Source: Kiritimatiellia bacterium
Lineage (GTDB): Bacteria > Verrucomicrobiota > Kiritimatiellia > RFP12 > UBA1067
Direction: 5' to 3'
Length of the DNA: 64,000 nucleotides
Assembly: GCA_017403825.1 (NCBI GenBank)
Contig: JAFRDO010000065.1
Span: forward strand, 6,438 to 70,437
A model generated the notes under the pieces. It worked only from the letters and a program-made list of their open reading frames with translations. It made no database searches and was not told the DNA's origin. Shown here in pieces: positions 7,136-63,083 of this stretch. The position numbers and the translations under genes were made by a program. The number at the start of each line of letters is the position of its first letter. Positions within the stretch are counted from its first letter, which is position 1.

Positions 7136-7339
7136 TTACCGAACATAGATTACCATGCCGAGAGGAATGGTATCGAGCGATCCATCAGCAGAAACGGCCC
7201 AATGGCCGACCGTAGTATTGATGGCTCCTGCGGAAGACGTCGCCGTTGAATCTGGCAAACGGTTGGTATTGGCGAATGCGGCCAACACCACAAGCATGGC
7301 CGCAACAATGGCAGCCACGCGCAATCCTGATGTTTTCAT
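7136..7339 (-). CDS. Small secreted peptide (67 aa precursor, ~44 aa mature), function unknown
   Basis: ATG at 7339 sits 12 nt downstream of AAAAAGGAGG. Signal peptide MKTSGLRVAAIVAAMLVVLAAFA. The mature part, NTNRLPDSTATSSAGAINTTVGHWAVSADGSLDTIPLGMVIYVR, ends in the same tail motif as the four PATR proteins (see findings). It sits in a 270 bp gap between two genes on the same strand. Confidence 0.45.
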   Translation of the reverse strand: MKTSGLRVAAIVAAMLVVLAAFANTNRLPDSTATSSAGAINTTVGHWAVSADGSLDTIPLGMVIYVR

Positions 7340-22510: not shown

Positions 22511-23211
22511 CTTGTCCACCAATTCCCGTCCGCGCTACCAAGTTTGACCCGCCGTGCCGCGCAGACAGAAAAAAGAAACGCGGCGTGCCTTCAGTCCAAT
22601 ATCCCGATTGAGGCACGACCAAGCGCCTTGTAGTGAATACGGAAAGAAAGCACGTCGCGTGTGCAACGCACACGCGACGCACCCCGCTTATCTCGCTCAC
22701 TACTTGAATGTTTGGTCGTTTTCAATCAGAGCTCGATACGCAAGTTGCGTAGCGTGACCTCCTTTGCGCTTTCCACCTTCGCGCGAGGCTACTGTGGACG
22801 AATTGCGCTACGGAGGTCGTGCCGGGTTCCTTTTGGGATTTCCCGGCTCCTCGTTCCGCCGTTCATTGCCGACACGGCATCTGCGAGGTTCTGCCAGTTG
22901 CGTCGCTTGCGCGGCGCTTCGGGCCGATGGCGGGCGTTGAATGCCACCCGCCGATGTCAAAGATCACCTGTCCCCCATTCAAGGAACAGCACAATTATAT
23001 CATAAAAAAAGTGGCTAGTGGGTAGGCGAAAAATGGCGGACGTGTCGTCTCCGCCTGTGGGTGAAATCCTAAGCCGATGAGCGCTGAAACACAGAGCCTC
23101 CATGACAAACAGCTCTTGGCGGCACGCTCCGACCACGTTCACCACGGCAAGTGGAGGTCCTCCTTGCTTCCGTTAGCCGCACATCCTGAATGAAAGTCGT
23201 TGTCTTCCCCT

Positions 23212-27891: not shown

Positions 27892-27967
27892 GGGGAAGTA
27901 GCTCAGTTGGTAGAGCATCACGTTCGCAACGTGGGGGTCGGGAGTTCGAATCTCCTCTTCTCCACCA
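27892..27967 (+). tRNA. tRNA-Ala (anticodon CGC), with encoded CCA
   Basis: GGGGAAGTAGCTCAGTTGGTAGAGCATCACGTTCGCAACGTGGGGGTCGGGAGTTCGAATCTCCTCTTCTCCACCA. The acceptor stem has the G3:U70 alanine identity pair. The anticodon loop is TTCGCAA (CGC). The T-arm is GGGAG/TTCGAAT/CTCCT. Confidence 0.85.
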
Positions 27968-34961: not shown

Positions 34962-37844
34962 TCACCGAACGGAGTATGTCATTCCGTAAACATGGGGAGC
35001 GAGGTAGCCGTCGGAATCAAGAATCACGCGGCGGCCGTCCCAGCGAATGCGATTGACCTGCTGCGGCGTGAGCCCGTTCCCGTCCGTGCCGAAACGGAGC
35101 GTGCGCGCCGCCGAAGGCCCCGTGATGGTCAGGCGACGGCTGCCCCAGTCCTGCGCGGAAGAATCGCCGAACGAAAGTTCCGAGCCCTCAGCCACGGCAA
35201 TCGTGCTGTTGGAGATAACGGAAAGCGTTCCCGCCACATTCGTGCTTGCGCCCGCATCGAACGTACCGCCCGCGAGCGTCAAGTTGATGCCCGCGTTGAA
35301 CGCGCCGTTCGTGCCGAGCAGGATCGCGCCCTCGACGATGGAGACGCTGCCGGCATAGCTGTTCGCCGCGCCGAGACGCACAGTACCAGCGCCCGTCTTC
35401 TCGATTGGCCGCCCGGCGAACGCTCCGCCGCTTCCGACATAGTTCGCAATCGCGCCGTTCAGGTAGAGATCGGTGCCTTCGGCAACGTCCGCGACATTAA
35501 GCTTCCACAGGTTGTCGTAACCGACCAAAGCAGATGAGTAGTTACCGCGCAGAATAGAGAACGGAAGATTTACGACCGCAGCGGCCGTTCCCGCCACCGT
35601 GATGCCAGAAACGGCCATGTCGCCCTCATAGCCGGAACGGAATTCATCGCCATTCACGGTCGCGCCGTCCGTCAGCGTAAGGCGCGTCAAATAGCCATAG
35701 TCCTGCCCATTGTCGCCGTTACCACCCGCCATGAACACCTCCGAACCTCCCGACACGTTGACGGTCGTCTGCGCACCATTCGAGCGGAAGCGTCCGAAGC
35801 ACAGGTAGCTGTCCTCCGTGACGTTGACCGTAGATTTGCCCAACACACCGACTGACGACTCGGGGCGGTTAACATCGATGAAGAGCTTGGCGCGGCTCTT
35901 CAGTGTCGTCTTGCACGACACATCACGTGGCAATGCACCGACCGCCGTAAGCCCCAGCAAGGCACCATCGACCACCGTGCCACCATAGTATGTATTCGCA
36001 GCACCAAAAGTGACCGCCGTGTCTGTTTCGTTCGTGACTGTGACAGTAAATTCGCTGCATGTATAGCCATTCGGCAAAGTTCCGTTCTCAAAATCGCACC
36101 CCCAATAGGCAAAACCCGTTCGATAGGAGCTACCCACGCGTCTGCATGTGATGTCTGCACCATTCTGTGCAAACTCGTACACGGCGCATTTCACATAGTT
36201 GTTTCTCTTATCATCTTTTATCTGGAACTGACAACGGACAGACTGCCCGTTGTTGCGGAAAAAGAAGGTGCCCGGCGGTTCATCGATATCTCTGCTCATG
36301 CTGCCACTTCCCTTGAATGTAGCCGTTGCAGCAACCCAGCCGGATATGTCGGCATTCTGAAAAAGGACACCGCCTGATTCTGGCAATTTTGCCGAATATG
36401 TGAGTGTGCGCCCCGAAGGATCGACCGTACCCTTAATGACAACGCTGCCAGCCGATGAAGCTCCAGACGAATCAGAGATGTCGCCGTTCAGAACCTGCCG
36501 CGTATGGGCAATTTCAAGGGTGCTGCGATAAATAACGATGGGGCTGCTGAATGTTCCGCCGCCAAGCGTTCCGCCCGTGACGGCGAGAGTGGACATGTTG
36601 TCGGCGCGCACCATTCCGGTGAAGGTGTTGTAGGCGGCCAGCTCCACGCGCGGGCAGAGATGCAAATCGCACATGCCGTAGACCGCAGTGTTGCCGTCGA
36701 ACAGACGCATGTTCGTCGCCTTCGGGTGTGTGCGGAAATCCACGCCGCGGCAATCGACATACTGGTCGTTGATGTAGGCCGCACCCGTCACCCTGCCGCA
36801 GATGTCCGGTCCGACCTGCGTCAGCTCCAGGAAAATGCACTTGGTGTAGCCGCCGCCGTACCACTGCATCTGCGCTGTGAGCGTAGAGCCGTTGTTTTCA
36901 AGGAAATACGATTGCTGCGGGGTGGAATCCCAGCCGACGGAATTGCCGCTCGCCGTGGAGATCAGGTTGCTGATGCCAGCCAAGGTGGCGTTTTGGAACA
37001 GCACCTGCGAGGCAGCCGGAAGCACGGTATGCGCAGCCAAACCATATTGATAAATGCAATTGGCGACGCGGAAGCCGTTTGCGCCGGCAAGCGGACATTC
37101 GAATCTGGCCAGACCGGAATACATGATGACTTCGGATGCCCCAACCATCGTGATCGTTCCACCCGTGAACGTGACAGGCCAGCCCTTCATCGTGAAGTGG
37201 CTCGCCGTGATGCCGGAAGCCTCAACATTGACGGTCGTCGCGACAGCGTTCGTGAACACCGCCCGAGCACCGGGAACCCAAGCCGTCGCCTCGCCGCTCT
37301 CCGTAAGCCAGTTCGCCGTTGTGCCGTCCCATGCATCGCCTCTCGCGCCGTTCCAGTAGAGCTTCGTGCGCAGGAAGGAGTCGTCCTCGTCGCTCAACGT
37401 CACGTCGCGGATCTTGTAGCTGCCGTTTGACCAGCCAGAAGACATGTCTGAACCTTCATGGTTGTGGTACTGGTCGTTGAAGTACCTTGCGAAGGCTTTG
37501 CCCTTGATGTCATCGCCGTCCTGCGTGAGCTGAAGCACCACGCCCTTGGTGTAGTCGCCCAGATACACCTGAAACTGCACCGTCAGAGTCGAACCGTCGT
37601 TGGAATAGTGGTACGCCGTGGCGGGTGCGCTCTTGCCGGCTGTTCCCATTGAATCCCCGGTGACCCACGCTGAAACGGACTTTACGTCGGCAAGACTCAC
37701 GCCCGTGAACATCACGGTGTCCGTCGCCGGAACGGTACCGGAGTAGGTTCCGAGCGTTGCCGCCGGAGCAACTGGCGAACATGTCGCGGCGATGCCGGCA
37801 ATCGCAGCCGCCAGAATGGTTCCATGTGGCTTTTTCATTTCCAT
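34962..37844 (-). CDS. Large secreted protein built from autotransporter-associated beta-strand (PATR) repeats; the C-terminus ends ...DSDGYLAPHVYGMTYSVR
   Basis: Signal peptide MEMKKPHGTILAAAIAGIAATCSP. PATR-type repeats, for example 'GAGTVRLGAANSYAGSVSIVEGAILLGTNGAFNAGINLTLAGGTF'. Confidence 0.7.
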   Translation of the reverse strand: MEMKKPHGTILAAAIAGIAATCSPVAPAATLGTYSGTVPATDTVMFTGVSLADVKSVSAWVTGDSMGTAGKSAPATAYHYSNDGSTLTVQFQVYLGDYTKGVVLQLTQDGDDIKGKAFARYFNDQYHNHEGSDMSSGWSNGSYKIRDVTLSDEDDSFLRTKLYWNGARGDAWDGTTANWLTESGEATAWVPGARAVFTNAVATTVNVEASGITASHFTMKGWPVTFTGGTITMVGASEVIMYSGLARFECPLAGANGFRVANCIYQYGLAAHTVLPAASQVLFQNATLAGISNLISTASGNSVGWDSTPQQSYFLENNGSTLTAQMQWYGGGYTKCIFLELTQVGPDICGRVTGAAYINDQYVDCRGVDFRTHPKATNMRLFDGNTAVYGMCDLHLCPRVELAAYNTFTGMVRADNMSTLAVTGGTLGGGTFSSPIVIYRSTLEIAHTRQVLNGDISDSSGASSAGSVVIKGTVDPSGRTLTYSAKLPESGGVLFQNADISGWVAATATFKGSGSMSRDIDEPPGTFFFRNNGQSVRCQFQIKDDKRNNYVKCAVYEFAQNGADITCRRVGSSYRTGFAYWGCDFENGTLPNGYTCSEFTVTVTNETDTAVTFGAANTYYGGTVVDGALLGLTAVGALPRDVSCKTTLKSRAKLFIDVNRPESSVGVLGKSTVNVTEDSYLCFGRFRSNGAQTTVNVSGGSEVFMAGGNGDNGQDYGYLTRLTLTDGATVNGDEFRSGYEGDMAVSGITVAGTAAAVVNLPFSILRGNYSSALVGYDNLWKLNVADVAEGTDLYLNGAIANYVGSGGAFAGRPIEKTGAGTVRLGAANSYAGSVSIVEGAILLGTNGAFNAGINLTLAGGTFDAGASTNVAGTLSVISNSTIAVAEGSELSFGDSSAQDWGSRRLTITGPSAARTLRFGTDGNGLTPQQVNRIRWDGRRVILDSDGYLAPHVYGMTYSVR

Positions 37845-37984
37845 TGCTCCTTTTCACTTTTCAGACACGTCACTTGCCCGCTCCATCAAAACGCCTTGAA
37901 TTATACCATAAAATCCGTATTCCCGCGCAGGACAATCCGGCTTCCGGCCCGCTTGCAGGACCTTGAAAGACATCCTTATGAATC

Positions 37985-38095
37985 AATTGCAAAACCTCCC
38001 CGTGTGTATTTTTCAACCACGGAAATCACGGAATAACACGGAAAACAAGCAATTTCGATTCCGTGTATTCTGTGTATTCCGTGGTTTTGCAATTG
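37985..38095. repeat. ~110 bp complex palindromic element between two genes on the same strand
   Basis: The outer 13-bp perfect arms are CAATTGCAAAACC and GGTTTTGCAATTG. The inner left arm has 3x CACGGAA at a 10-bp period. The inner right arm has TTCCGTG / TTCTGTG / TTCCGTG at a 10-bp period. Confidence 0.7.
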
Positions 38096-38109
38096 CCTCT
38101 TAATATAAG

Positions 38110-40494: not shown

Positions 40495-40522
40495 TTTCAA
40501 ACCTCTCCGCCCTTCTCGGCCG

Positions 40523-41566
40523 TCAAGCGTCCATTGCGGCGGCGAGCTGGTCCATGCCCGCGCAGTTCAGCTTGAACGCCCAGTCGTTCTTGCATTCCAG
40601 CCACGAAGCCATCAAAAAGCCCTTGAGATGCTCCGGCGAAACGTTGGCGCGGCAGAACTTCACCAGTTCGCCGGCACAGTCGGAGTTCTCGGTGCGGCCG
40701 GAAGCCTTCAGCTTCGGCGACACCCAATTCGTAGGCATCGCCACCATGTCGAACCCCGCCTTGTCCAGATTGATGAAGTTCTTGAGGCGCGGCTGATAGC
40801 GCTTTTCCATCTTCTCTATCACGTACCCCTGCACGTCTTCATTGTAGTAGCCGGGGTTCTGAAGGACGCTCTTCGGGCATTTCTCGACATATTCCGGATG
40901 GCTCCAGGCGTAGCCTGTGAACATCCACGGCCTCACGCCGTGGCTCTCGACCGCACCGACGAGCTTGTAGAGCCAATGCCACCACAGCTCATGCTGGCGG
41001 CAGGTCACGTGTGCAAACTTCTTCTGCCACTCGAGGGTCTCTTCGTCCATGCCGATGTGCATGAAGCGCGGCGTCTCGAAGATTTCGCACACGTCCTTGA
41101 TCACATCGAAGCACACGCGGTAGTACGGCTCAGTCGCCACCATGCGGTGGTACTGCTTGAGCCACTGGTCGTGAGATGCGGAGAAGTTGAGTTTCGGGAT
41201 AGGTTCAAGCCCCATCGCCCTCAGCCGCCGCACTTCGTTGCGCATCCGGTCGGGCGGCCAGCTGCCCTTGACCGCCAGCTCGGGGTGGCTCGGATACTCG
41301 ATGAATTCGCCAAGGTCCATCACCACCATGTTGAAGTTGCGCTTCTTTGCGTGGTCGACGGTCTTCTTCCAGATGTCTTCTGAGAAATAGATCTCGTCGC
41401 GCGTGTAGCGCTTGCCTTCGATCCTCGGCTCGTCCGGCGCAGCCCATTCGCCCCACATGTTCATGCCCATGTGCAGCAACACGCCGCGGATATCCTCCGG
41501 CTTCTTCGCAAACGTCGGCGCGGCGGCCAAAGCGCTCATGCCCGCAATGAATTCTTTTCGCGTCAT
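40523..41566 (-). CDS. Tat-signal secreted TIM-barrel hydrolase-like protein (family unresolved; paralog of 53958..55016)
   Basis: MTRKEFIAGMSALAAAPTFA is a Tat-like signal. It is ~60% identical over its full length to the 53958 protein ('LHMGMNMWG.W.AP.EP...RY..DEI.FSEDIW.KTVDHAK...NMVVMDLGEF.EYPSHPELAVKGSW'). Confidence 0.6.
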   Translation of the reverse strand: MTRKEFIAGMSALAAAPTFAKKPEDIRGVLLHMGMNMWGEWAAPDEPRIEGKRYTRDEIYFSEDIWKKTVDHAKKRNFNMVVMDLGEFIEYPSHPELAVKGSWPPDRMRNEVRRLRAMGLEPIPKLNFSASHDQWLKQYHRMVATEPYYRVCFDVIKDVCEIFETPRFMHIGMDEETLEWQKKFAHVTCRQHELWWHWLYKLVGAVESHGVRPWMFTGYAWSHPEYVEKCPKSVLQNPGYYNEDVQGYVIEKMEKRYQPRLKNFINLDKAGFDMVAMPTNWVSPKLKASGRTENSDCAGELVKFCRANVSPEHLKGFLMASWLECKNDWAFKLNCAGMDQLAAAMDA

Positions 41567-41586
41567 CCTACATTCACTACTGAAGC

Positions 41587-43812
41587 CTACCTGATGGACA
41601 TAATGAAGCCGCTCCGGACCAGATAGCCGTCAGGATCCTGAACGGCACGATGTCCGTTGATCCTGACTTTAGACAACTGCGCGCCCGTCAGGAACTTCGT
41701 CGTGCCAACGCGGAACGTCTTCTCGCCGACATCTCCCGTCAGACTCAGACCCTTGGCGTTCGCCGCAAACGCAAGATTGGTGCACGTAAGAGACGAGCCT
41801 GCCGCGAAGTTAATCGTGTTGATCGCGTTCGTGCCGCCGACCGTCAGCATCGCAACGTCCGTATTGACGCCAGCGGCAGAATCGACCGTGCCGTCGCCGT
41901 AGAGCGAAAGCGCCTGTGTCCTGACAATCGCGTTGTTCTTGCAAAGCTCCAACGTGCCCTCATCAACGCAGACCTCAATCGTATTCTCCTTCTGGGAATT
42001 GGCAGGATAGTCATCCTGCGTATAGTCGAGAATCAGTTTCCCCGAACCACACTTGCGCAGACGCCTGCCGACTTGATAATATTCAGCAGACGTAGGAGCC
42101 GTCATGATTCCGCCCGTAAGCCGCAGATTCTGCCGCGTGTCGAACGTAGTGTACTGAGAATTCCCGTTCCAGCTGTAGTTTCCGTCCGACATTATCCTGA
42201 TGCGGCCGGCGACCGTGACCCCATTCGTACCGTCAACCGTCAAGCGCGGTGTCGTCGTCAACGAACCCACGGACCCGAAACGCAAGGAACCGATTGTGAT
42301 GGCATCTTCGGTGACCTGTGCGCCGTTCCTGAGCGTCAGATCGAAGACCTCCTGACTAATCGTTCCTGAACTACTCCCGCTGCAGTCAGACCTAAGCGTT
42401 CCGCCGTCAATGATAGCCCGCAGCCACCTGAGATTGCGGTGTGATCTGGACGACGTGAACTTTGAATTCGGCCCTACATAAAGCGCAGCCCCAGTGTCGC
42501 TATCGCCTCCAGGAGTGTTATGCGCATACGTATTGATTTCAAGCATGCCGCCGTTTATGACACGAATTGGGCAACCTGGCCCGCAGACTTGAGTTCCCTT
42601 GAACGTGTCACCATGACACGTCAGCTTTCCTCCGTCAATGGTAAGGCCACCCGTGAGACTGTTCGTGAACCAATAGTCGAAATAGACCGTGGGAGTCGCA
42701 CCCGTATGCTTGATGAGCAGCGATCCGTTACCCGACAGGGAATCGCCCCAATCTACAGAAACGAGAGGTTTTGTTCCAGGCACATAATCCCAAATGAACT
42801 TATGCTGCTGCCTTCCGCTGTCATTGCCGGTAATCTGCCAGGTGCCGTTGCTTACAATGCAGGCTCCGATCACGGTCGTGGAATTCGTGTGCGCAAAGCC
42901 TCCGCTGAACTCCAGAGTCCCCTTCGGTTCGGCATGTATTTCGCTCCCATACACGCACCAGCCCGATGTGTTGACGCCATCGTAGATTTTGCTCACACCG
43001 CCAGAGAGAAGACCTGCATTCTCAAGTGCAACAAAATCATCGCCCAGCTTAAGCTGTTCTCCGTTCACATCGAACTTCAGGGAACGAATCCTCATCCCCT
43101 TCACTGTCACGTCATCCCCGACCTGCTCGAACTTAAGCGTAACCCAATCGATGTTGCCCAAAATTCCGCTGGGGTACTGGAACTGAATGGTCAGTTCGCC
43201 GTTATTCCATGTCGGGTGATAGGCGTTCGCCCGAAGCGCACTGTTTATCACGCCTCCGCTTCCGACCTTGTGGAAGTAGAGCGACTTGATTTCGAGGTCC
43301 TCAAGACGGCAGTTCCGCCAAAGCGTGTTGGTTCCGCCAGTATAGATATCCCATGTCCCATACCCTCTGCACGTAAGAAATCCCGGATGCGCGCACTCCG
43401 GCTGAACGAAATTGGCGACGAAGCCGTTGGCGAACGTCAGCTTGGACGAGATTGTCGCGCCCTTGTAGGTGTTCACATCGATCGGCATCTTCGCGGCGAA
43501 ATTGAGCGTGCCGCCGGAAATCGTCGGCCTTATCGTGCCGTTGAAGACGAGTCCGCCAAGATTAATTGTTCCCGAGGCCGCGATACTCGCACCGCCATAG
43601 TCGCCGAAGACGGCTGTCGAGCCGTCCACCCACGCGCTCGGATCGCCGTTCTCGTCCTCCCAGTTCTGAGCCGTGGTGTTCCACGCGCCGCCGGAGGCTC
43701 CGACCCATTTAAGTGTGCCTGCCGTCACAGTAAGAACGCCTGCCATGACGCCGAGAAGGAAAACTGAAAGTTTACCTCCGCCCATGCGCACATTATTCGT
43801 AATTGTGTTCAT
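41587..43812 (-). CDS. PATR-repeat large secreted protein; the C-terminus ends ...DPDGYLVRSGFIMSIR
   Basis: ATG at 43812 is preceded by AAGGGAGGAGG. The N-terminal 'WVGASGGAWNTTAQNWEDENGDPSAWVDGSTAVF' is typical of the family. Confidence 0.7.
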   Translation of the reverse strand: MNTITNNVRMGGGKLSVFLLGVMAGVLTVTAGTLKWVGASGGAWNTTAQNWEDENGDPSAWVDGSTAVFGDYGGASIAASGTINLGGLVFNGTIRPTISGGTLNFAAKMPIDVNTYKGATISSKLTFANGFVANFVQPECAHPGFLTCRGYGTWDIYTGGTNTLWRNCRLEDLEIKSLYFHKVGSGGVINSALRANAYHPTWNNGELTIQFQYPSGILGNIDWVTLKFEQVGDDVTVKGMRIRSLKFDVNGEQLKLGDDFVALENAGLLSGGVSKIYDGVNTSGWCVYGSEIHAEPKGTLEFSGGFAHTNSTTVIGACIVSNGTWQITGNDSGRQQHKFIWDYVPGTKPLVSVDWGDSLSGNGSLLIKHTGATPTVYFDYWFTNSLTGGLTIDGGKLTCHGDTFKGTQVCGPGCPIRVINGGMLEINTYAHNTPGGDSDTGAALYVGPNSKFTSSRSHRNLRWLRAIIDGGTLRSDCSGSSSGTISQEVFDLTLRNGAQVTEDAITIGSLRFGSVGSLTTTPRLTVDGTNGVTVAGRIRIMSDGNYSWNGNSQYTTFDTRQNLRLTGGIMTAPTSAEYYQVGRRLRKCGSGKLILDYTQDDYPANSQKENTIEVCVDEGTLELCKNNAIVRTQALSLYGDGTVDSAAGVNTDVAMLTVGGTNAINTINFAAGSSLTCTNLAFAANAKGLSLTGDVGEKTFRVGTTKFLTGAQLSKVRINGHRAVQDPDGYLVRSGFIMSIR

Positions 43813-43905
43813 TGCCGTTTTCCTCCTCCCTTTTTGTGACATAACATCTTCAGTTTGTTACATTATACCATATTTTTCACACATGATGCACAAACCGCGG
43901 AAACG

Positions 43906-45372: not shown

Positions 45373-46877
45373 GCCTCTTTCCTCCTCACCTCGAAATCCG
45401 TCATGATCGGTCGCCCGCGCGTGTAGTACGAATTCATCGGATTGACGATGAACCGCGACGGCAAGTCTGCCGGCACGTCACTCTTGAGCATCCGGCAGAC
45501 GACCTGCTTCTTCTCTGCCCCGTAGATGTAGTCCATTGGATAGAAACGGCGAGTGGCGACCGTCTTGACCACATCGCAAGCCTGCAGCTCAACGCGCACC
45601 TCGTACTCGTTGGCACGTGGCGTGGACGCCGTTGACGCGGCTGGCGGAAACGTCAGCTCGTACATCTCCCGCATCTCACCCAGCCGGTCTTTTGCACGCA
45701 CCTCTTTCACCGTGATCACCGCGCCGACAGGGAACTGCGGAGCCGGAACAACCTTCCGACGCGTCTCGAACGCATAGGGCCTGTCGCCCGGCGCAGGAAA
45801 CGGAATCACCCAGTCCGGCCCAAGTGAAACGCCGTACTTGAACTCATGACGCTTCACCACCATGCAGTTGTCATAGACTGAGACGAAATAGCCCTGACGC
45901 GTAAAGTCGTAGCCTTCGCCCACGGCCATTTCCGGCATCGTTCGCACGATGTGCCGCGTCTCGCGGTCGAACAGCGAGAAACCGTTCTCTCGCCCGCCGA
46001 GCGTCACGCAATATCTGAGCGACGGCACCTCGATGGCGCTGAACGCGCCCTGCCACACGCACTGGTCGTTCACGGCGCACTGATGGGCGTGTCCGCAGAA
46101 CGCGATGACGTTAGGAAACTTCGCCGCGAAGAGCGCACCAGTCGTTCCGTCTTCCTGTCCCCACACGTACGGACCGCACGCGGTATTGCGGTACACGCGG
46201 TGCTGCGAATGGAAGAATGGACGGTTAGGATCGAGATCGAGCCCAGCCATGAACTTTTCCAGCCCCGGCGTGTTGTCTCCCCGCTCGTTTCCCTTCTCGC
46301 CCTGCGTGAAGTGCGACAGCACGAAGTCATAGCCTTTCACGCGCTTATGGACGATCGGCGACCACGGCTCGTGGAAGCACTTCTCCCAGATCGCCTTGCG
46401 ATCGTTGAGGCGGATGATGACCTTCTTCATTTCCTCTTCGTCGGGAAACATCTTCACGCACGGCTTGCAGCGGCGGTAGGTCGATCCGCGCGTGTCATGA
46501 TCTCCGTAGTGCATCAGGTTCGCGACGGGGCGGCCGTCGCGCCCCTTGCCGTCCGGGAACACCTCAAACCACGCTCTCGCGACACACTCAAGCTGCGGAA
46601 TGACGCCGTAGTCGGCAAGGTCGCCGCACACCATCACGCCGTCCGCCCCCCAACTGTCGAACTCGCGCAGCACGGCCCTGAACGGCCCAGTGGCCTCCCA
46701 GTCCGTGATGTGTATGTCGCTCAGCACGCCAAGCTTGAGGCGTACTGGGCCGCGCGGTTCCACGATCGGTCTGCCGAACGACGGCACGGACGCCATCGTC
46801 ACTCCCGCAAACGATCCCTTCAGAAACGAACGCCGATTCATGCCATCCCGTATATAACGCGCAAAAAGATTTTTCAT
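45369..46877 (-). CDS. Tat-signal calcineurin-like metallophosphoesterase (paralog)
   Basis: MNRRSFLKGSFAGVTMASVP is a Tat signal. Phosphoesterase motifs: 'LGVLSDIHI', 'GDLADYG', 'GDHD'. It has 4-nt overlaps with both neighbours. Confidence 0.75.
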   Translation of the reverse strand: MKNLFARYIRDGMNRRSFLKGSFAGVTMASVPSFGRPIVEPRGPVRLKLGVLSDIHITDWEATGPFRAVLREFDSWGADGVMVCGDLADYGVIPQLECVARAWFEVFPDGKGRDGRPVANLMHYGDHDTRGSTYRRCKPCVKMFPDEEEMKKVIIRLNDRKAIWEKCFHEPWSPIVHKRVKGYDFVLSHFTQGEKGNERGDNTPGLEKFMAGLDLDPNRPFFHSQHRVYRNTACGPYVWGQEDGTTGALFAAKFPNVIAFCGHAHQCAVNDQCVWQGAFSAIEVPSLRYCVTLGGRENGFSLFDRETRHIVRTMPEMAVGEGYDFTRQGYFVSVYDNCMVVKRHEFKYGVSLGPDWVIPFPAPGDRPYAFETRRKVVPAPQFPVGAVITVKEVRAKDRLGEMREMYELTFPPAASTASTPRANEYEVRVELQACDVVKTVATRRFYPMDYIYGAEKKQVVCRMLKSDVPADLPSRFIVNPMNSYYTRGRPIMTDFEVRRKEA

Positions 46878-49177: not shown

Positions 49178-49191
49178 TCCGTTTTCTCCTT

Positions 49192-51504: not shown

Positions 51505-51508
51505 ACGC

Positions 51509-53941
51509 CTACCAAATCGACAGGATGAATCCTCTCTTGATTCTCGGCACGATCCATCCGTACTCGTCCACCGAGACGCCGCGCTCGCCGTAGAATATGT
51601 TTCCAAGTTCGCTGCGGGACGGCTGGTTCACTACCCGGATCTGCCCGCCGGCTTCACTAAGTTCGTTAGTGATCGTCAGCGTGGCATTCGCCAGATTCTC
51701 AATCGAATCCACCACGAGCGTGGAGTTCGTCGGCACGTCCAACACACCCGCTGTCGTAAGCGACACCTTCCCGATCGCATTGGAGACGCCGTCCGCAAGC
51801 GCAAGCCCGCCGCCGAACAAAAGCGAGATGTTCTGCGATGCGTTCATCGTCCCCGTCCGCCCGAGTTTTAAGAATCCGCCGGAGACGAGCGTGGGGCCGA
51901 CGCAGCTGTACGTGCCGTTCATGAGCCATGTGCCGCTTCCGCGTTTGAGGACTGTGACATTCGTGTATGCCTCATTCAGAGGCGTGAGGATGTTGCCGGT
52001 GAACGTGAAATCCACGCCGCCGTCACCCGTCACGTCCTCGACGTCCACCGTGAACGTCCTGGGTTTGGGATTCTGCTCTGTAGAGGAGTTGTCGCCGTAG
52101 AGGTAGAGCGGGCTTGCCGAGGCGGAGCACGGAGTCGAACCGTAGACGTACCAGTTCCCCGCATGAAGCTTGCCGCAGTACACCTGGGCCGCATTGACGG
52201 TGGCGCCGTCGCAAAGCCAGAGATGGTTGAGGTAGCCGACGAAGCCGGAGCCTCCGACAGACCCGAACTCCACCGCACCGCCATCGTTCCATATTGAAAA
52301 CATGTAGCCAATGGAGTACCTCGCCGTCTGGCGGAGCGTGCCGCCCGGCTTGATGCAGAGCGCGCAGGTGTTGGACCCATAGTTGTACGACTGCTCGGTC
52401 ATGTTGAAGTTGAAGAGGACGGACGAGCCGTTTCCGGCGACAATCGACCCCATGCACGGAAGCGCGAACTTGCTGTCCAGCGACAGCGTGACGTCGCCGT
52501 ACGCCCTGTATTCGCCGCTGTCCATCGTGTTGACGCCGGAAAGCGCCGCCGCCGCCAACTCGATCGGCTCCGAGAACTCAAGTTCCACATCATAGACATA
52601 GACTGCAGCGCCGTTCGCGCTGTCGGTTGTAGATGCCGTCACCCTCTGCTGACTCCCGACCAATTCCGACCCTTGCGTCCCGGTGCCCTGCCTTGCTTCG
52701 GCGTACTTCACAAAAATGTCGTCTCCGACCTGAGTAAACTCGAGCGTGGCGCACCGCATGAAATTGGCGCCTGTCGATTTGTCAAGGCCCTGAATCTGCC
52801 AGCGTTGCGTCGTGGCCGTGGAAGAGAGGAGAACATACCCGTTCCCGTTGTTGGCAATCGGCAGCACGCCTTTGCTGTAGCATCCGACGACGGCCTTTAC
52901 GTTCGTTACGTTGGAAAGCCTCGCGTTTGTCTTGAACACCATGGAGGTCGTGTGATACTCCGTGTCCATGTCGGCCGCCGTGTAGAAGAAGCCGTCCCGC
53001 TTATATGAATAGACCGGGTCGTTCTCGAAAACGACGTCGCCCGCCCCGGAAACGGCGCTGGCGACGGAGATCCCGCAGGAATTGCGCAGTTCAACAGTGG
53101 AGCCGGCCCCCACGTTCAGACCGTTTGCGAACGTTCCCGCCACGGCGGCCCGACCGGCGTCTATCGCGACGAATGCGCCGTCCGCCGCCGAAACGGAACC
53201 TGAGAGCGCGCCGGCGAAGATGACCTTGGCGGCGTCATGCCCAGCCGTGATCTCCACGGTCAGGTTGTCCACGGTTCCTTCGACCGCAGTGCCGACGTCC
53301 GTGAAATCTCTCCTGCCGCGATAGTCACCGTAATCCGTGCCGTTCGTCTTCGTCCAGGCGACGGAGCCGTAGATGTCTGCACCGTTCTGCACGAGCACGA
53401 GCTTGGCGGACTGCGTCTGCCCGGCGTTGTAGCTGGTGACAAAACACTGCGACTGCATCTGCACTTCCAGCCGCCCGGCCTCGCGCACGATGAAATACGG
53501 CCTTGCTACGCCGGCAAGTTCTCCGCTGAAGCGCGATGCGACGGGAGTGACGGCGTCGAGCGAAAGGTTCTCGAACATCAATGCGCCGGGATTGCCGTCT
53601 TGGTACGCCGGAAGCGCAGCGCCGCTGTAGGTGAACTGCTGCCCCGTGCGCGAACAGGTCAGCCATGCGCCGGCGACATCGTTGGAGAACACGAGCGTTC
53701 CCGAGGCCGCCATTGTCACCGTTGCACCGGCGGCAAAGGCGATCGCATCGCCTGTGACGGTCAGGGTTTCACCGTTCGCCGGCGTGGCGACGAGCGTCTT
53801 CACGGCTCCGTTCTCGTATGTGAACGCAAGGGGACCAAGCGACGATGGAGTTGTGCCGGATGTCCAGACATAAGTTTCATCCGCCGTACAGACGGAACAT
53901 ATGGCGAACGCTGCCAACATCGTTTTGATTTTCCTGTTCAT
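51509..53941 (-). CDS. PATR-repeat large secreted protein; the C-terminus ends ...DEYGWIVPRIKRGFILSIW
   Basis: ATG at 53941. Signal peptide MNRKIKTMLAAFAICSVCTA. Repetitive beta-strand composition (G/T/S/A/V-rich). Confidence 0.7.
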   Translation of the reverse strand: MNRKIKTMLAAFAICSVCTADETYVWTSGTTPSSLGPLAFTYENGAVKTLVATPANGETLTVTGDAIAFAAGATVTMAASGTLVFSNDVAGAWLTCSRTGQQFTYSGAALPAYQDGNPGALMFENLSLDAVTPVASRFSGELAGVARPYFIVREAGRLEVQMQSQCFVTSYNAGQTQSAKLVLVQNGADIYGSVAWTKTNGTDYGDYRGRRDFTDVGTAVEGTVDNLTVEITAGHDAAKVIFAGALSGSVSAADGAFVAIDAGRAAVAGTFANGLNVGAGSTVELRNSCGISVASAVSGAGDVVFENDPVYSYKRDGFFYTAADMDTEYHTTSMVFKTNARLSNVTNVKAVVGCYSKGVLPIANNGNGYVLLSSTATTQRWQIQGLDKSTGANFMRCATLEFTQVGDDIFVKYAEARQGTGTQGSELVGSQQRVTASTTDSANGAAVYVYDVELEFSEPIELAAAALSGVNTMDSGEYRAYGDVTLSLDSKFALPCMGSIVAGNGSSVLFNFNMTEQSYNYGSNTCALCIKPGGTLRQTARYSIGYMFSIWNDGGAVEFGSVGGSGFVGYLNHLWLCDGATVNAAQVYCGKLHAGNWYVYGSTPCSASASPLYLYGDNSSTEQNPKPRTFTVDVEDVTGDGGVDFTFTGNILTPLNEAYTNVTVLKRGSGTWLMNGTYSCVGPTLVSGGFLKLGRTGTMNASQNISLLFGGGLALADGVSNAIGKVSLTTAGVLDVPTNSTLVVDSIENLANATLTITNELSEAGGQIRVVNQPSRSELGNIFYGERGVSVDEYGWIVPRIKRGFILSIW

Positions 53942-53957
53942 GACCGTTCTCCTTTCT

Positions 53958-55016
53958 TTACAATTTCATCGCGGCGGCGAGCTGGTCGATGCCAGCGCAG
54001 TTGAAGCGGCACGTCGCTTCGCCCTGCGTGTCGGCCCATGACGCCATCATGAACCCCAGGAGCCTCTCCGGGGCAATGTGCTTGCGGCAGAACTCGACCA
54101 TCTTCCGCGAGTTCTCCGAGTTGTTCTTGAGCCCCGCCTTCTTCGCACGCTCGGAAATCCAGTTTGTGACGCACGGCAGCTGGTCGAAACCCGCCTTCTC
54201 CAAGTCGATGTACAGCTGGAGCTGCGGCTTGAACTCGGGCGCCATGTTCTCGATCACGTAGCCCTGCGCGTCCTGGTTGTAGTACCAATTCTGCTGAACT
54301 GTGCTTTTGGGCATCTTCTTCACGTATTCGGGATGCTTCCACCCGTAGTCGGCGCTCACGATGGCCCGCATGCCCAGCTTCTCGACGGCATTCACGAACC
54401 AGTAGAGGTCATGCCACCACATCTCATGCTGACGGATCATGACTACGCCACGCCCGCTCTGCAGTTTGTAGCACTCCTCGTCAAAGCCGATGTGGATCAT
54501 GCACGGCGTCTCAAATATCTCGGCGACGTCCTTCAGAATGTCGGAGCAAACGTTATAGTAGATCCGCGTGGAAAGCATGCGGTGATATTCCTGCAGCCAG
54601 CAGTCGTGCGTAGCCGAGAAGTTGAGACTCGGGATCGGCTCAAGCCCCATCTTCTTCAGCCGCTTTACCTCCGCCGCCATGCGCTCCGCCTTCCAGCTGC
54701 CCTTCACCGCCAGTTCGGGATGGCTCGGATATTCCAGGAACTCGCCAAGATCCATCACGACCATGTTCAGCCCCTTCGCCTTGGCGTGGTCGACGGTCTT
54801 CCGCCAGATGTCTTCGCTGAAGAATATCTCGTCTTTCGCGTACCGGCGGCCGGGGGCGACCGGCTCGCCGGGCGCATGCCAGTCGCCCCACATGTTCATG
54901 CCCATGTGCAGCATCACGGCGCGGACAGCCTCTGGAGATGCGGCGAACGATGGACTCACCGCAAGCCCGGCAGAGCCAATCATCGCCTCCTTGATGAATG
55001 TTCGCCTCGTCTGCAT
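53958..55016 (-). CDS. Tat-signal secreted TIM-barrel hydrolase-like protein (paralog of 40523..41566)
   Basis: ATG at 55016 lies 9 nt after GAAGGAGG. MQTRRTFIKEAMIGSAGLAVSPSFAASPEA is a canonical RRxF(I)K Tat signal. Its RBS overlaps the stop of the upstream activase gene. Confidence 0.65.
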   Translation of the reverse strand: MQTRRTFIKEAMIGSAGLAVSPSFAASPEAVRAVMLHMGMNMWGDWHAPGEPVAPGRRYAKDEIFFSEDIWRKTVDHAKAKGLNMVVMDLGEFLEYPSHPELAVKGSWKAERMAAEVKRLKKMGLEPIPSLNFSATHDCWLQEYHRMLSTRIYYNVCSDILKDVAEIFETPCMIHIGFDEECYKLQSGRGVVMIRQHEMWWHDLYWFVNAVEKLGMRAIVSADYGWKHPEYVKKMPKSTVQQNWYYNQDAQGYVIENMAPEFKPQLQLYIDLEKAGFDQLPCVTNWISERAKKAGLKNNSENSRKMVEFCRKHIAPERLLGFMMASWADTQGEATCRFNCAGIDQLAAAMKL

Positions 55017-55021
55017 TCCCA

Positions 55022-55879
55022 TCAACCTCCTTCGTTTTCCCTTTTCGGCGGCATCGTATCCTTCATGCCGAGCGCAAGGTACTTCGAGCGGGCGTAGTCG
55101 TAGTACTCAAGGTTGACGATCGACGACTCAGGGATGCCGATGGAATCGAGGTAGCGGTGGCGGGCGACGATGTCGTCGCCGTCCGTGCAGCCGGGAACCA
55201 CAAGGCACCGGACCTCCAGCTTCGCCTTAGCCGCCACGAGCCGTTCGAGGTTCTTCTTTATGGCACCGTTCGAGACGCCGGTGTACTTCACGTGAAGCGC
55301 ATCGTCGTCCGCCTTGTAGTCGGGAAGCCACAGATCCGTCACCGGCAGGAGCGCGTCTATCGCGGCGGGCGGAGCGTAGAGCGACGTGTCGAGGCAGGTG
55401 TGGAGCCCAGCCTTCTTGAACGCCGCGAACAGCTCAGCCGCCCATTCCCAGAAGAAGAGCGGCTCGCCGCCGGACAGCGTCACGCCGCCGCCGGACTCGT
55501 CGTAGAACGCCTTGTCCTCAAGCGCCTTGGCCACGATTTCATCAATCGTCATCGGCTTGCCGTAGAACTTCAGCGCGCGCGTGGGACACGTTGCCTCGTC
55601 CATCGTGCATTTAGCGCAATTCCTGCAGAGATGCCGGAAGCGCGCAGTCTGCGGCTTCACGTCGATGGACTCCGGGTTGTGGCACCAGATGCACTTCAAG
55701 GGGCATCCTTTCACAAAGAACGTCGTGCGGATTCCCGGCCCGTCATGGATAGCCATCCGCTTCGTGTCCAGCATCAGCGGCGTCTTTGCGGCGCGGCCGG
55801 CAGCGGACGCGACAGTCAGCGGCCCACAGGCCGCATACGCGGCGGAGACAGCGATGAACTCTTTGCGTGTCATCTTCAT
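55022..55879 (-). CDS. Glycyl-radical-enzyme activating enzyme (radical SAM, PflA-like) with an unusual ~40-aa Tat-signal-like N-terminal extension
   Basis: The core 'MAIHDGPGIRTTFFVKGCPLKCIWCHNPE' aligns to E. coli PflA '[26 protein letters not shown]' and contains the CxxxCxxC cluster. 'GVTLSGGEPL' is the SAM motif. Upstream and in frame, MKMTRKEFIAVSAAYAACGPLTVASAAGRAA is preceded by GGGAGGT and then 10 nt before the ATG at 55879. An alternative core start is the ATG at 55756 (MAIHDG...). Confidence 0.7.
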   Translation of the reverse strand: MKMTRKEFIAVSAAYAACGPLTVASAAGRAAKTPLMLDTKRMAIHDGPGIRTTFFVKGCPLKCIWCHNPESIDVKPQTARFRHLCRNCAKCTMDEATCPTRALKFYGKPMTIDEIVAKALEDKAFYDESGGGVTLSGGEPLFFWEWAAELFAAFKKAGLHTCLDTSLYAPPAAIDALLPVTDLWLPDYKADDDALHVKYTGVSNGAIKKNLERLVAAKAKLEVRCLVVPGCTDGDDIVARHRYLDSIGIPESSIVNLEYYDYARSKYLALGMKDTMPPKRENEGG

Positions 55880-55897
55880 GGACGCCGCGACCTCCCG

Positions 55898-57421: not shown

Positions 57422-57483
57422 GTTTCACCTCCTTCGGTCGGCCAGCGTGCGAAGCGAAGCCTCCCGATTTCCTTTACATAACG

Positions 57484-60432: not shown

Positions 60433-60443
60433 GTGTTCCCTCC

Positions 60444-62861
60444 TTACCTGATGATGACTTTCGTTCCCTTCACACAAACCATCTTCAGTTCATGCGAGCC
60501 AGGATAATACCTCACCATCCAATCGCCGGTAAGGTTGGTGGAGCTGAACTCGCCCGTGCAACCATGAGACAGCGTGGCGATCGTGTACTTCTTCGCCTCG
60601 TTCAGCTTCGAGGTGTCGTTTACCTGAAGCGTCATCTTCGAGAGGTCGAGCTGCGTCGGACAGCTGAAGCAGTCGCTCCCGCCCGTCTCATCCACGTCAA
60701 TCTCCAGCACGACATTGTCTGCGATGTTGATTCTGCCGTCGTCTGCGATGGTCAGCGTACCAAGCGAATCCGCACTCATGCCAGGAGCGATGGCGGAGGT
60801 CACTGACAGGACGGAACTGGACGAAAAGCCTCCAAACCTGCCGCTTCCCTCGATACGCGCGAAAGTCTGCGAGAAGGTGTTCATGCTGAAGCTCGCGTCG
60901 GCGTTGACACGTGCTGTGGTTGTCGAAGGAAGCGCCTCGCTCATACCGATGGAGACGGTACCCTGCATGACGGTGAGCGGCCCGTTGAAGGTGTGGCCCG
61001 ACCTCATGATTGCGAAGGTATGTCTCCCCCACTTCGTGAGACCACCGTCCGTCTCGCCAGCCGGGACACCGCTCTTGATACGCGGGTAGAACCACATCTG
61101 GAGGTCATTCGTGATGTTCATACCGCCCTTCAGCACATTGTAGGCGACATTGGTCTCGGTGGAGCCATTGTCGCCGCCGAAGGGGCAGTTGGCGAACTGA
61201 TTGCCTGGAACCTCCGGTTTGGCCCACTCAATCGCGCCGCCGTTAAAGTTGACGGTCGCCTTGTATTCCTGCTGAACGCCATGAATGTAGAGGCTGCCCT
61301 TGAGACGCACTACGCCACCCGTTTCGATGTTGAAGACGGACTTCGACGCATCGCTCCCCGCACCATTGCCGCCGATACGGACGTTCTGGAGGTAGAGGCG
61401 GCCGCCGTTCCGGACGGTTGTCGTGGCAGCGACGGAATTTGCATGGAGCATTTCATGGCCGTCGCAATCGACAAGCCCGCCATCGATGATCAACCTTCCG
61501 TTCTGCGTGATAATGCGGCTCCCCGCGACAGTCCTGAGTTCGGCGCCGCTTTTGACCGTCAAGGTACTGCCGTTGTGCAACGGCGAACCATTGTTCGTTC
61601 CAAATCCTTCGTCGCTGCTCTCATTAAGACCCTTCGTGCTGTAGAGAAGCGTCGTACCGCTGGCAAGGACGGTCGGTATGCCGACGGAGAGGCGGCTGAG
61701 GTGATTTGTACGGCCATTTCCAGGATCAAGCGTAACCGTGGCGGCACCACCCCAATGCCGCGTAAGCAGGAAACCATGCTCTAAGTTCTCACACGAAATC
61801 GTGCCCTTGATCGTCAACGGCGAGTTGTCCGCGTAAGTGCCGATTTGAGCCGCAATGCCATTGCCGATGCGGATATTGCGGTTCGAATTAACGGTGACGC
61901 CGCCATGTGCGATGAACATGGACGAGGTCGTATTGGACGGGCACTCGAAGAAGATGTTGTCCGTAGGCTCGGACGGAACCGCGCCAAGAGCCGAATCGCC
62001 ATCGATGCCAACGCCGCCGCCTGTACCCGCGATGTGCAGGCCGCCGCGAAAGGCGTTGGATGAGTGGTTCTGCATATAGATGTAGCTGCTGTGATCACCC
62101 GTAATAAGACCGCCGTCAGTAGGCAGATCTTCGTCCGTGCCGATCGGACCGGGCAGATAGGTCCAACCGCCGGGACGCTCCGCAATGTACATTCCGCCCG
62201 CGCCGACAACCAGCTTTGTATTGCCGAGATTGACCCTGTTCTGGTACGTATCATAGGTGTGGAGCAACGTTCCGCCGTTGAAATAGATCGTGGGCCTGTT
62301 GCTGTTGTTGAGGGCGTTCTTGTTGAACGTGGCCCTGAAAGTGCCGTTTGTGAGGACAACCAGCTTGCCTGCGTTGCTGCTGTCGTACGGCGAATAGTAC
62401 GCATCGAGATAGCCGCCGTCGCCGACGGTGAAAGTTCCGGTTCCCCCATACATGCGGAATCCATAAGAAGTGTCTGTGCAGATTACGGTATTGTAGATCG
62501 TGAGGTTGCCATTGTTCACGTCGATGACCCGCATCGTGACCGGTCCGCCGGAAAGCGTATGAACGCCGCCCATGTCGAACTCGAATCCTTCCACGCCCTC
62601 GGCCATGACCGTTATGTCCGTAGCACCGTTCGAGTCGAACTTCGGGTTGGAGCTGGAAGAGTTGTTGACCCATGCTTTCCGGTTGGCCGACGATGCGTCC
62701 GACGCCCAGTTCTCGGACACCATGTCCCAGTCGGGGTTCTCCGTCGTGCCGCGCCAGATGAAAGTCTCGGCGCTCGCACGGAGAGCCAAGGTCACACAAG
62801 CTATAACAACGACGGCTTTCATTACAGCAGCCATCTCTCCCAGTTGCTTCATCTTACTCAT
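60444..62861 (-). CDS. PATR-repeat large secreted protein; the C-terminus ends ...GSHELKMVCVKGTKVIIR
   Basis: ATG at 62861 lies 7 nt after AAGGAGG; the track start at 62867 is TTG. Signal peptide MSKMKQLGEMAAVMKAVVVIACVTLALRASA. The N-terminal 'WRGTTENPDWDMVSENW' motif is typical of the family. Confidence 0.7.
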   Translation of the reverse strand: MSKMKQLGEMAAVMKAVVVIACVTLALRASAETFIWRGTTENPDWDMVSENWASDASSANRKAWVNNSSSSNPKFDSNGATDITVMAEGVEGFEFDMGGVHTLSGGPVTMRVIDVNNGNLTIYNTVICTDTSYGFRMYGGTGTFTVGDGGYLDAYYSPYDSSNAGKLVVLTNGTFRATFNKNALNNSNRPTIYFNGGTLLHTYDTYQNRVNLGNTKLVVGAGGMYIAERPGGWTYLPGPIGTDEDLPTDGGLITGDHSSYIYMQNHSSNAFRGGLHIAGTGGGVGIDGDSALGAVPSEPTDNIFFECPSNTTSSMFIAHGGVTVNSNRNIRIGNGIAAQIGTYADNSPLTIKGTISCENLEHGFLLTRHWGGAATVTLDPGNGRTNHLSRLSVGIPTVLASGTTLLYSTKGLNESSDEGFGTNNGSPLHNGSTLTVKSGAELRTVAGSRIITQNGRLIIDGGLVDCDGHEMLHANSVAATTTVRNGGRLYLQNVRIGGNGAGSDASKSVFNIETGGVVRLKGSLYIHGVQQEYKATVNFNGGAIEWAKPEVPGNQFANCPFGGDNGSTETNVAYNVLKGGMNITNDLQMWFYPRIKSGVPAGETDGGLTKWGRHTFAIMRSGHTFNGPLTVMQGTVSIGMSEALPSTTTARVNADASFSMNTFSQTFARIEGSGRFGGFSSSSVLSVTSAIAPGMSADSLGTLTIADDGRINIADNVVLEIDVDETGGSDCFSCPTQLDLSKMTLQVNDTSKLNEAKKYTIATLSHGCTGEFSSTNLTGDWMVRYYPGSHELKMVCVKGTKVIIR

Positions 62862-63083
62862 CTTCAAGCCTCCTTGTTGCCGTTGTACGGCGAAACGCTT
62901 TTCCTAGTTGTGTGATAATAATATCATAAACTCATTCGCGTCCGCAACAGCTATATAGACAGGTGGAGCGTTGGACGCGATTCGGAACGTCGTTTCCGGA
63001 ACCGGCATTGCGGCGGTTGACTTCGGGCGCGATCTTTGGGATAATGCGCTGAAGTGAAACACCCTCAAGACCGGAGAAACGCC

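Follow-up and report, generated by a model that had tools for sequence, protein, structure and literature searches.

A short C-terminal tail on secreted beta-helix proteins of Kiritimatiellia, a candidate envelope signal in the place of PEP-CTERM

INTRODUCTION

Kiritimatiellae are abundant, mostly uncultured degraders of glycans in guts, the rumen and marine sediments. We analysed a stretch of 64,000 nucleotides, called the window throughout, from contig JAFRDO010000065.1 of a Kiritimatiellia bacterium. The window has 59.6% GC and comes from a gut or rumen Kiritimatiellae bacterium; the database proteins closest to its products are from metagenome-assembled genomes (MAGs) of Kiritimatiellae. 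Four large secreted proteins and a secreted peptide of 67 aa encoded in it end alike, and an earlier note on this DNA proposed that their common C-terminus of ~16 residues is a sorting or processing tag. What does this ending consist of, how widely does it occur, and what might it do for the proteins that carry it?

The common ending proved to be a tail of the last 8-10 residues. It is carried by Sec-exported PATR-type beta-helix proteins of Kiritimatiellia and Lentisphaeria and by a mini-protein of 42 aa, encoded inside glycan-degradation operons. We tentatively favour the reading that the tail is an uncatalogued C-terminal signal by which beta-helix surface proteins are directed to, or retained at, the envelope in place of PEP-CTERM, a reading that is possible, though we would not yet call it probable. 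The tail is uncurated. Its motif, how widely it occurs and its replacement of PEP-CTERM stand on solid ground; its function does not. A full-text literature search found no description of it. To our knowledge, the catalogued small C-terminal signals (LPXTG, PEP-CTERM, PGF-CTERM, GlyGly-CTERM and MYXO-CTERM) all have three parts, namely a motif, a transmembrane helix and a basic cluster. The signal of the type IX secretion system (T9SS) is a folded domain.

RESULTS

Definition and specificity of the tail

Translation of the four large open reading frames (ORFs) and of the small one at 7136-7339 reproduces, residue for residue, the C-termini quoted in the earlier note. The carriers and their tails are listed here with the scores from the position-specific scoring matrix (PSSM) described below.

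34962..37844, minus strand: g37844, 960-aa secreted PATR-type beta-helix protein (translated ORF, TIGR02601 match)
34965..35168, minus strand: C-terminal module (~65 aa) and tail of g37844 (alignments, profile search)
34965..34994, minus strand: tail of g37844, HVYGMTYSVR-COOH, 11.3 bits
41587..43842, minus strand: g43842, 751-aa secreted paralogue
41590..41616, minus strand: tail of g43842, RSGFIMSIR-COOH, 16.3 bits
51509..53941, minus strand: g53941, 810-aa secreted paralogue
51512..51544, minus strand: tail of g53941, RIKRGFILSIW-COOH, 12.3 bits
60444..62867, minus strand: g62867, ~800-aa secreted beta-helix-like protein of a different family, without the LRFG...GYL module
60447..60473, minus strand: tail of g62867, VKGTKVIIR-COOH, 17.4 bits, the highest of the five
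7136..7339, minus strand: mini-peptide gene, 67 aa, signal peptide and ~42-aa mature peptide ending ...VSADGSLDTIPLGMVIYVR
7139..7168, minus strand: tail of the mini-peptide, IPLGMVIYVR-COOH, 16.2 bits

In g53941 the usual basic last residue is replaced by Trp. The ORF of g62867 opens with TTG, and translation probably begins at an ATG a few codons further in.

Position statistics were taken over 158 sequences that bear the C-terminal module described in the next section. The chain ends 10-13 residues past the GYL of the module, and exactly 12 residues past it in 99 sequences. The tail always stands at the extreme C-terminus, as the earlier note held, and its length is fixed: Gly is at position -7 in 147 of the 158 (93%). 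The positions before it (-8 to -11) are rich in Pro. Positions -4 and -2 accept almost only I, L, V, F or M, while position -3 accepts S, R, T and Q. The last residue is R (78 sequences), K (25), Q (20) or F (14), with W and H rare. The general form is thus a Pro-rich linker of 3-5 residues followed by G(-7), [T/L/F/M](-6), h(-5), H(-4), x(-3), H(-2) and the terminal residue; individual residues vary and the pattern is kept. Because of these statistics we define the unit as a Pro-rich linker plus a single short amphipathic strand in which the spacing between the Gly and the free carboxylate is constant.

The PSSM was built from the last 9 residues of 148 unique tails, none of them from the window. 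On this matrix the five window proteins reach 11.3-17.4 bits, and the 99th percentile of 2239 ORFs of at least 50 aa from the window and 18 related loci (loci are given L numbers below) is 5.7 bits. One probable false positive in that set, a Cas7-like protein, reaches 10.5 bits. Among ~2,700 ORFs the PSSM selects only tail proteins, bar one weak false positive, and the match in the window exceeds chance. Since no other window ORF reaches 8 bits, the tail is indeed absent from the other secreted proteins of the window. The ending of g62867 had been described as the weaker one, but its GTKVIIR is the best fit to the family-wide consensus.

The tail is restricted to proteins with signal peptides: by a crude test at least 71 of 81 long carriers have one, and several of the others have a hydrophobic or evidently truncated N-terminus. 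None of the 81 has a transmembrane-like segment near the C-terminus. In the last 40 aa of carriers, the most hydrophobic stretch of 15 residues averages 0.70 on the Kyte-Doolittle scale. Five carriers lie within 64 kb here, and tandem pairs of carriers were found in L004, L006 and L024. Such paralogous expansion of carriers is typical of many-to-one sorting systems.

We also considered that the tail might be conserved through the ribosome-binding site of the downstream gene, given short gaps of 7-29 nt. This was rejected because the conservation is at the level of amino-acid class, and because the tail is kept where the downstream gene is distant or on the opposite strand (L001, L004).

The C-terminal module and the breadth of the family

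The motif of ~16 residues has to be divided. Its last 8-10 residues are the tail, but the D-G-Y-L half is the last beta-strand of a folded module of ~65 aa with the pattern ..F.DSS...W....LTITG.....LRFGT...gLT..Q...IRw.G..V.LD..GYL. In g37844 the module reads ...FGDSS..W...LTITG....LRFGT..nGLT..Q...IRW.G..V.LD.DGYL and is followed by the tail. In BLASTP comparisons g37844, g43842 and g53941 align with one another to the last residue (E values of 2e-23, 9e-12 and 4e-5). The tail shared by the four large proteins is real, but these three of them are paralogous and their tails are not independent observations.

All 24 of the 24 C-terminally complete, full-length homologues of g37844 end in module and tail. 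An exhaustive profile search with the module in 1.84 billion representative proteins (50%-identity clusters) returned 1345 clusters at E<=1e-3, of which 313 reach E<=1e-10. Among the best 150 of the 1345 clusters, module and tail form the extreme C-terminus in 123. A word-index profile search added 11 fragments from contig ends in which the tail was confirmed.

Scans with Pfam and NCBIfam gave no model over the module or the tail, either in the five window proteins or in the last 120 aa of 76 diverse members. The possibility that the tail is the last strand of a C-terminal domain already in Pfam can thus be set aside, and no strand is built for the tail in the structure predictions given below. 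The description of the large proteins as four PATR proteins holds for g37844 (TIGR02601, 32.3 bits against a cut-off of 19.85) but not for the other three, which fall below the threshold (g53941, a weak match) or give no match (g43842 and g62867). PATR was found in 33 of 55 members of the wider tail-bearing family.

Occurrence of the tail without the module

The tail is not bound to the module, and the sequences that precede it are of at least three kinds. The module hidden Markov model (HMM) matches none of g62867, L005:23-1969, L024:3204-8003, P0062 and a LamG-like protein encoded in L022, and of the profile only the last 21 positions align with the mini-peptide. g62867 and L005:23-1969 are related at 28% identity (E 8e-38) and share another C-terminal context, '..TGEF....L.G.W.V.Y...'; both end in G-T-x-h-h-h-[R/K], L005:23-1969 with GTILLLK. 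A metagenome scan for relatives of g62867 found none. The protein L024:3204-8003, with PATR and a LamG-like domain, ends in '...LLRATGTILFLR', and P0062 ends in '...IVPPPTLFIVR'. The LamG-like protein of L022, which is not a PATR protein, ends in '...RQRGLMIIMR' and scores 17.2 bits.

Replacement of PEP-CTERM at a common junction

In relatives, other C-terminal elements occupy the position of the tail. In L016 (Rariglobus) and L015 (a Kiritimatiellales MAG) the module is followed directly by VPEP or IPEP, a transmembrane helix and a basic end. The module is likewise followed by PEP-CTERM in P0030, P0056, P0114 and P0138 (TIGR02595 above cut-off); P0145 and P0165 have a PEP-CTERM-like ending by sequence only, with no TIGR02595 match. 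The module precedes another domain, of 75-110 aa, in Haloferula, Luteolibacter and Tichowtungia, and the module-bearing Bacteroidota-like proteins P0063, P0077, P0092 and P0128 end in a type A C-terminal domain (CTD) of T9SS (TIGR04183). The PEP-CTERM and T9SS endings indicate that the module is complete at GYL without the tail and that anchors sit at this junction. PEP-CTERM proteins were found only in loci from genomes without tail matches, in a small sample.

These observations raise the question of whether the tail could be a decayed remnant of PEP-CTERM without function, in which the P-x-G of VPEP, a stub of the transmembrane helix and one Arg were left after loss of exosortase. The tail has the three-part layout in miniature (Pro-rich, hydrophobic, basic) and begins at the PEP-CTERM junction of its relatives, and the separation of PEP-CTERM from tail genomes in the small sample is what such a history would leave. 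However, drift would be expected of a remnant, and the tail instead keeps its length (the Gly at -7) and its pattern over >1000 clusters and at 28% identity. It is also kept on a gene of only 67 aa, where the tail residues change while P, G and R are invariant. We consider a functionless remnant highly improbable.

A related idea, that the tail is a PEP-CTERM truncated by a stop codon with the leftover coding sequence beyond it, was rejected because the next genes begin only 7-20 nt past the stop codon, which leaves no room.

As a separate observation, the predicted proteins P0056, P0114 and P0138 each contain two or three internal PEP-CTERM matches. They look like several tandem PEP-CTERM genes joined in a single predicted ORF; read-through, reassignment of a stop codon or faulty gene calling in the source assemblies may be the cause.

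Predicted structure of the C-terminus

The last 329 aa of g37844, modelled with AlphaFold2 from an alignment of 21 sequences, form a beta-helix with a mean predicted local distance difference test (pLDDT) score of 91. The model has YLAP as its last strand and shows the final 10 residues as coil (pLDDT ~62). For the last 120 aa of g43842, with 76 aligned sequences, a beta-helix was again obtained (mean pLDDT 90); the last strand is YLVR, and SGFIMSIR is unpaired and in no sheet. The tail is thus placed outside the predicted fold. When the C-terminal model was searched against PDB folds, all matches were to beta-helices, generic and weak (best E 0.05).

The models bear on the possibility that the tail is a structural or assembly element of the beta-helix class, either as a cap strand in cis or as a strand donated in trans in fibres or oligomers. 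Nearly all carriers are beta-helix or PATR-like proteins, the adjoining secreted enzymes never have the tail, and the tail itself has the alternating hydrophobic pattern of a beta-strand. In the model from the deeper alignment, that of g43842, the last block of residues has a pLDDT of 84. The mini-peptide retains the last hairpin together with the tail at identical spacing, DG[YS]L-x5-G, and in the trans variant it would be a cap or terminator. Against this, neither model pairs the tail with any strand, and the module folds and occurs widely without the tail, being followed then by PEP-CTERM or by other domains. The tail also follows C-terminal contexts that are not homologous, including that of one LamG-like protein. 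Taking both sides together, we regard a structural or assembly role as rather improbable.

Comparison with known C-terminal signals

The earlier note held that the tail is not PEP-CTERM, not LPXTG and not a T9SS CTD, and the absence of HMM matches, motifs and transmembrane helices bears this out. The nearest system is PEP-CTERM with exosortase (TIGR02595, PF07589). Like the tail, PEP-CTERM is the very last element of surface proteins of the Planctomycetes-Verrucomicrobia-Chlamydiae group that are exported by Sec and are often of PATR type, and in homologues it starts at the identical junction after '...LD.nG[YF]L'. In both, a start that contains Pro is followed by a hydrophobic part and then by a basic end, and both have many paralogous carriers per genome. 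In contrast to PEP-CTERM, the tail has no PEP motif, its hydrophobic run is 5-6 residues long instead of a transmembrane helix of ~20 residues, and it has one basic residue in place of an Arg cluster. PEP-CTERM HMMs matched neither the five window proteins (E<=0.1) nor, at E<=1, the C-terminal 120 aa of 76 family members; P0030, P0056, P0114 and P0138 served as positive controls. Intramembrane cleavage of the exosortase type is implausible because the tail cannot span the inner membrane.

The beta-signal of outer-membrane proteins, which is recognized by BAM, has the consensus polar-x-G-x-x-hydrophobic-x-hydrophobic and usually ends in Phe or Trp. The tail is similar in being a C-terminal amphipathic strand with Gly followed by alternating hydrophobic residues (G-7, H-4, H-2), and for both the placement relative to the free C-terminus matters. 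It differs from that consensus in having one residue more after the last hydrophobic position, which is R, K or Q in 123 of 158 sequences and F in 14; an aromatic terminus occurs in only ~10%. The carriers, moreover, are predicted to be beta-helices without a beta-barrel domain.

The T9SS CTD (TIGR04183, type A) is also a C-terminal signal on secreted surface proteins and on accessory proteins of glycan degradation, and it terminates some proteins with the LRFG...GYL module. It is a folded beta-sandwich of 70-100 aa, however, compared with the 8-10 residues of the tail. TIGR04183 gave no match in the window proteins or the 76 members, with P0063, P0077, P0092 and P0128 as positive controls, and the beta-helix modelled with AlphaFold2 reaches to within 10 residues of the end. 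Neither an LPXTG motif nor a transmembrane helix was present in any tail C-terminus examined for a sortase signal.

Two further comparisons concern architecture. Autotransporters of type Va share the right-handed beta-helix passenger with PATR/TIGR02601 repeats, but the tail proteins end 10 residues past the helix and lack the C-terminal beta-barrel translocator of 250-300 aa; no autotransporter-barrel model of Pfam or NCBIfam matched the window proteins. Donor-strand exchange in the chaperone-usher and type V pili likewise uses a short terminal amphipathic strand outside its own fold that could complete a neighbour. The tail proteins differ in having no pilin fold, chaperone or usher, and the analogy is functional only.

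The mini-peptide and its FGE-sulfatase-domain neighbour

The 67-aa secreted peptide of the earlier note is a conserved gene: members of its family are 63-83 aa long and homologues occur in nine clusters. The peptide of the window is 100% identical to the NCBI entry 'hypothetical protein IJH50_09245 [Kiritimatiellae bacterium]'. Conservation is higher in the mature part, R-x-PDSTATSSAGAINTTVGHWAVS.DGSLNT.P.G-5 aa-R, than in the signal peptide. Its tails vary (GMVIYVR, GTMFTIR, GMVFTIR, GMIITFR), with P, G and R invariant. Because the DG[YS]L-x5-G spacing is identical in the mini-peptide and in the large proteins, the mini-peptide gene probably arose from the 3' end of a gene for a large tail protein, to judge from the sequences.

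The mini-peptide gene is invariably followed, after a gap of ~29 nt, by a gene for a secreted protein of 418-439 aa with an FGE-sulfatase domain (PF03781). It is syntenic in L019-L022, with a second copy in L021. The neighbour in the window and the positions of the pair are as follows.

5788..7107, minus strand: FGE-sulfatase-domain protein, 439 aa, secreted (PF03781, E 2e-25)
Window 5788-7339, minus strand: mini-peptide/FGE pair
L019 9397-10975: mini-peptide/FGE pair
L021 5623-7187 and 10001-11579: mini-peptide/FGE pairs
L022 2331-3837: mini-peptide/FGE pair

The pair is kept in four different contexts, that upstream of the L022 pair being different; it occurs also in L020 and is duplicated in L021. 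Since the mini-peptide has no Cys and no Ser-x-P-x-R motif, it is not an obvious FGE substrate.

Distribution and genomic neighbours

In a species-level genome collection, the tail loci fall in MAGs of Kiritimatiellia/-ae, in one Lentisphaeraceae MAG and in one 'Verrucomicrobiota' MAG. Tail-bearing PATR genes beside M60 peptidase genes were found also in L011 and L012, which come from bins labelled Gemmiger sp. and Alistipes onderdonkii. These Firmicute and Bacteroidota labels are probably due to binning contamination, because gene content and similarity resemble Kiritimatiellae or Verrucomicrobiota contigs.

Between 31 and 63 kb the window carries a series of glycan-degradation genes, all on the minus strand, and the genes of the four large tail proteins are scattered among them. 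The series encodes GH78 and GH106 rhamnosidases, GH39, a DUF4838/GH20b/GDSL protein, metallophosphoesterases and a glycyl-radical enzyme. The next (enzyme) gene begins 7-34 nt past the stop codon of the tail genes, which suggests co-transcription; the GH78 rhamnosidase gene, for instance, begins 7 nt after g37844 and a gene for a 347-aa protein with a twin-arginine translocation (Tat) signal 20 nt after g43842.

Neighbours were surveyed by all-against-all BLAST of 236 genes of the window and the loci, with Pfam run on the neighbours. The only recurrent ones were the mini-peptide/FGE-like pair and an un-annotated Tat-signal protein of ~350 aa; the remainder were assorted carbohydrate-active enzymes, M60 and other peptidases, and esterases. 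Two paralogues of the ~350-aa protein, without Pfam match, each directly adjoin a tail-bearing beta-helix gene in the window.

40523-41566, minus strand: ~350-aa twin-arginine signal protein
53958-55025, minus strand: ~350-aa twin-arginine signal protein

A homologue at L018 12188-13258 lies ~2 kb downstream of a tail gene, with one gene between. FGE-sulfatase proteins as recurrent neighbours of carriers in general were also considered; the apparent link was traced to one multidomain M60 peptidase and was dropped.

The survey bears in turn on the possibility that the tail is a processing or quality-control signal for a periplasmic PDZ-type protease of the Ctp/Prc family or similar, acting in maturation or turnover. 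Such proteases are known to trim C-termini: Prc cuts 11 C-terminal residues off FtsI of Escherichia coli, and CtpA trims the D1 precursor. The tail would suit such an enzyme in offering a free C-terminus with hydrophobic last residues at a fixed distance from Gly(-7), and in being, by the models, flexible and outside the fold. On the other hand, tail-specific proteases prefer a small or non-polar last residue, a place that Arg, Lys or Gln mostly takes in the tail; the neighbourhoods share no recurrent protease gene; and the replacement of membrane anchors in homologues would be left unexplained. A processing signal of this kind is therefore decidedly unlikely.

DISCUSSION

We return to the reading of the tail as an envelope signal. 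The sorting or processing role proposed by the earlier note is something we infer, as we do that the tail is a signal at all, that it has a partner, that the mode of binding is beta-strand addition, and whether cleavage would follow. The course of events might be as follows. After export to the periplasm, the folded beta-helix would end at '...LD.nGYL.P', and the flexible tail would be offered as a single amphipathic beta-strand. It could be recognized by its hydrophobic face and by the fixed position of the C-terminal carboxylate and the basic residue. The reader would be a partner in the envelope, and the simplest mode would be beta-strand addition to an outer-membrane protein or to an export or assembly machinery. 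Recognition would deliver the protein to the cell surface or keep it there. The tail would in this way perform the job that PEP-CTERM and exosortase perform for homologues in Verrucomicrobiota and other Kiritimatiellales.

Several points weigh against this reading. MAGs and metagenomes are the source of all sequences. Of the four large window proteins three are paralogues, and the DGYL half of the 16-residue motif belongs, as its last strand, to a homologous, un-annotated module. The last 10-residue block has a pLDDT of 84 in the deeper-alignment model, so the tail may lie against its own domain. The cargo is narrow: among carriers retrieved with the module, 33 of 55 are PATR proteins and 5 of 55 have Flg_new, the rest having no Pfam domain, and the tail is missing from all secreted enzymes, glycoside hydrolases and peptidases included, of the window and ~430 kb of related loci. 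Diverse cargo is usual for real sorting signals. The LamG-like carrier of L022 has no obvious signal peptide, although its N-terminus is uncertain. Finally, no recurrent sortase, protease, translocon or receptor candidate was found in the neighbourhoods of carriers.

A bolder form of the proposal can be stated. Kiritimatiellia and Lentisphaeria would have a new class of sorting or anchoring without a transmembrane helix, in which a strand of ~7 residues, G-h5-[R/K]-COOH, on a Pro-rich linker is bound by strand addition to a receptor in the outer membrane or periplasm. This class would have replaced PEP-CTERM/exosortase for the display of beta-helix proteins linked to glycan degradation, with the 42-aa peptide and the FGE-like protein as a dedicated component or regulator. 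In this full form we consider the proposal doubtful.

A widespread replacement of PEP-CTERM by 8-10 residues without a transmembrane helix would point to a different route of surface addressing in diderm bacteria. The genes of tail-bearing proteins stand first in rhamnosidase, GH39 and M60-peptidase operons, and the tail may therefore identify the surface glycan-binding or scaffold parts of polysaccharide-utilisation loci. The tail also offers a handle for annotation of >1000 clusters that are now called 'hypothetical' or 'autotransporter-associated beta strand repeat', and it might be used as a tag for surface display. If the tail is only structural, the finding shrinks to a new family-specific C-terminal module.

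Other features of the window

Some observations on the window stand apart from the tail. A secreted protein of 971 aa without the tail is a C10 (streptopain-like) peptidase with an N-terminal Spi inhibitor and with Ig-like and Flg_new repeats. A group II intron match of Rfam (domain V/VI) lies just upstream of the real start of GH106, within an N-terminal extension of the ORF. Because no reverse-transcriptase ORF is evident near it, this element may be an intron remnant. Within the rhamnosidase locus, a glycyl-radical enzyme with PFL-like and Gly_radical domains may be a dehydratase related to propanediol or deoxy-sugars; the long ORF of the downstream GH39/Exo_endo_phos protein overlaps its gene by ~870 nt, so the real start of the GH39/Exo_endo_phos gene must be internal. 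A region resembling a defence or mobile island encodes a SNF2/PLD helicase (1142 aa) and a fused restriction-modification methylase of the Eco57I/MmeI type (1136 aa), with a small gene pair resembling a toxin-antitoxin system between them. The positions of these features, together with a tRNA gene, are as follows.

736-3651, minus strand: C10 peptidase protein
10124-10212, minus strand: RF00029 match, 51 bits against a gathering score of 40
14956-22522, minus strand, and 18435-19105, plus strand: defence- or mobile-island-like region
27892-27967: tRNA-Ala gene
46874-50065, minus strand: long ORF of the GH39/Exo_endo_phos protein
49192-51606, minus strand: glycyl-radical enzyme

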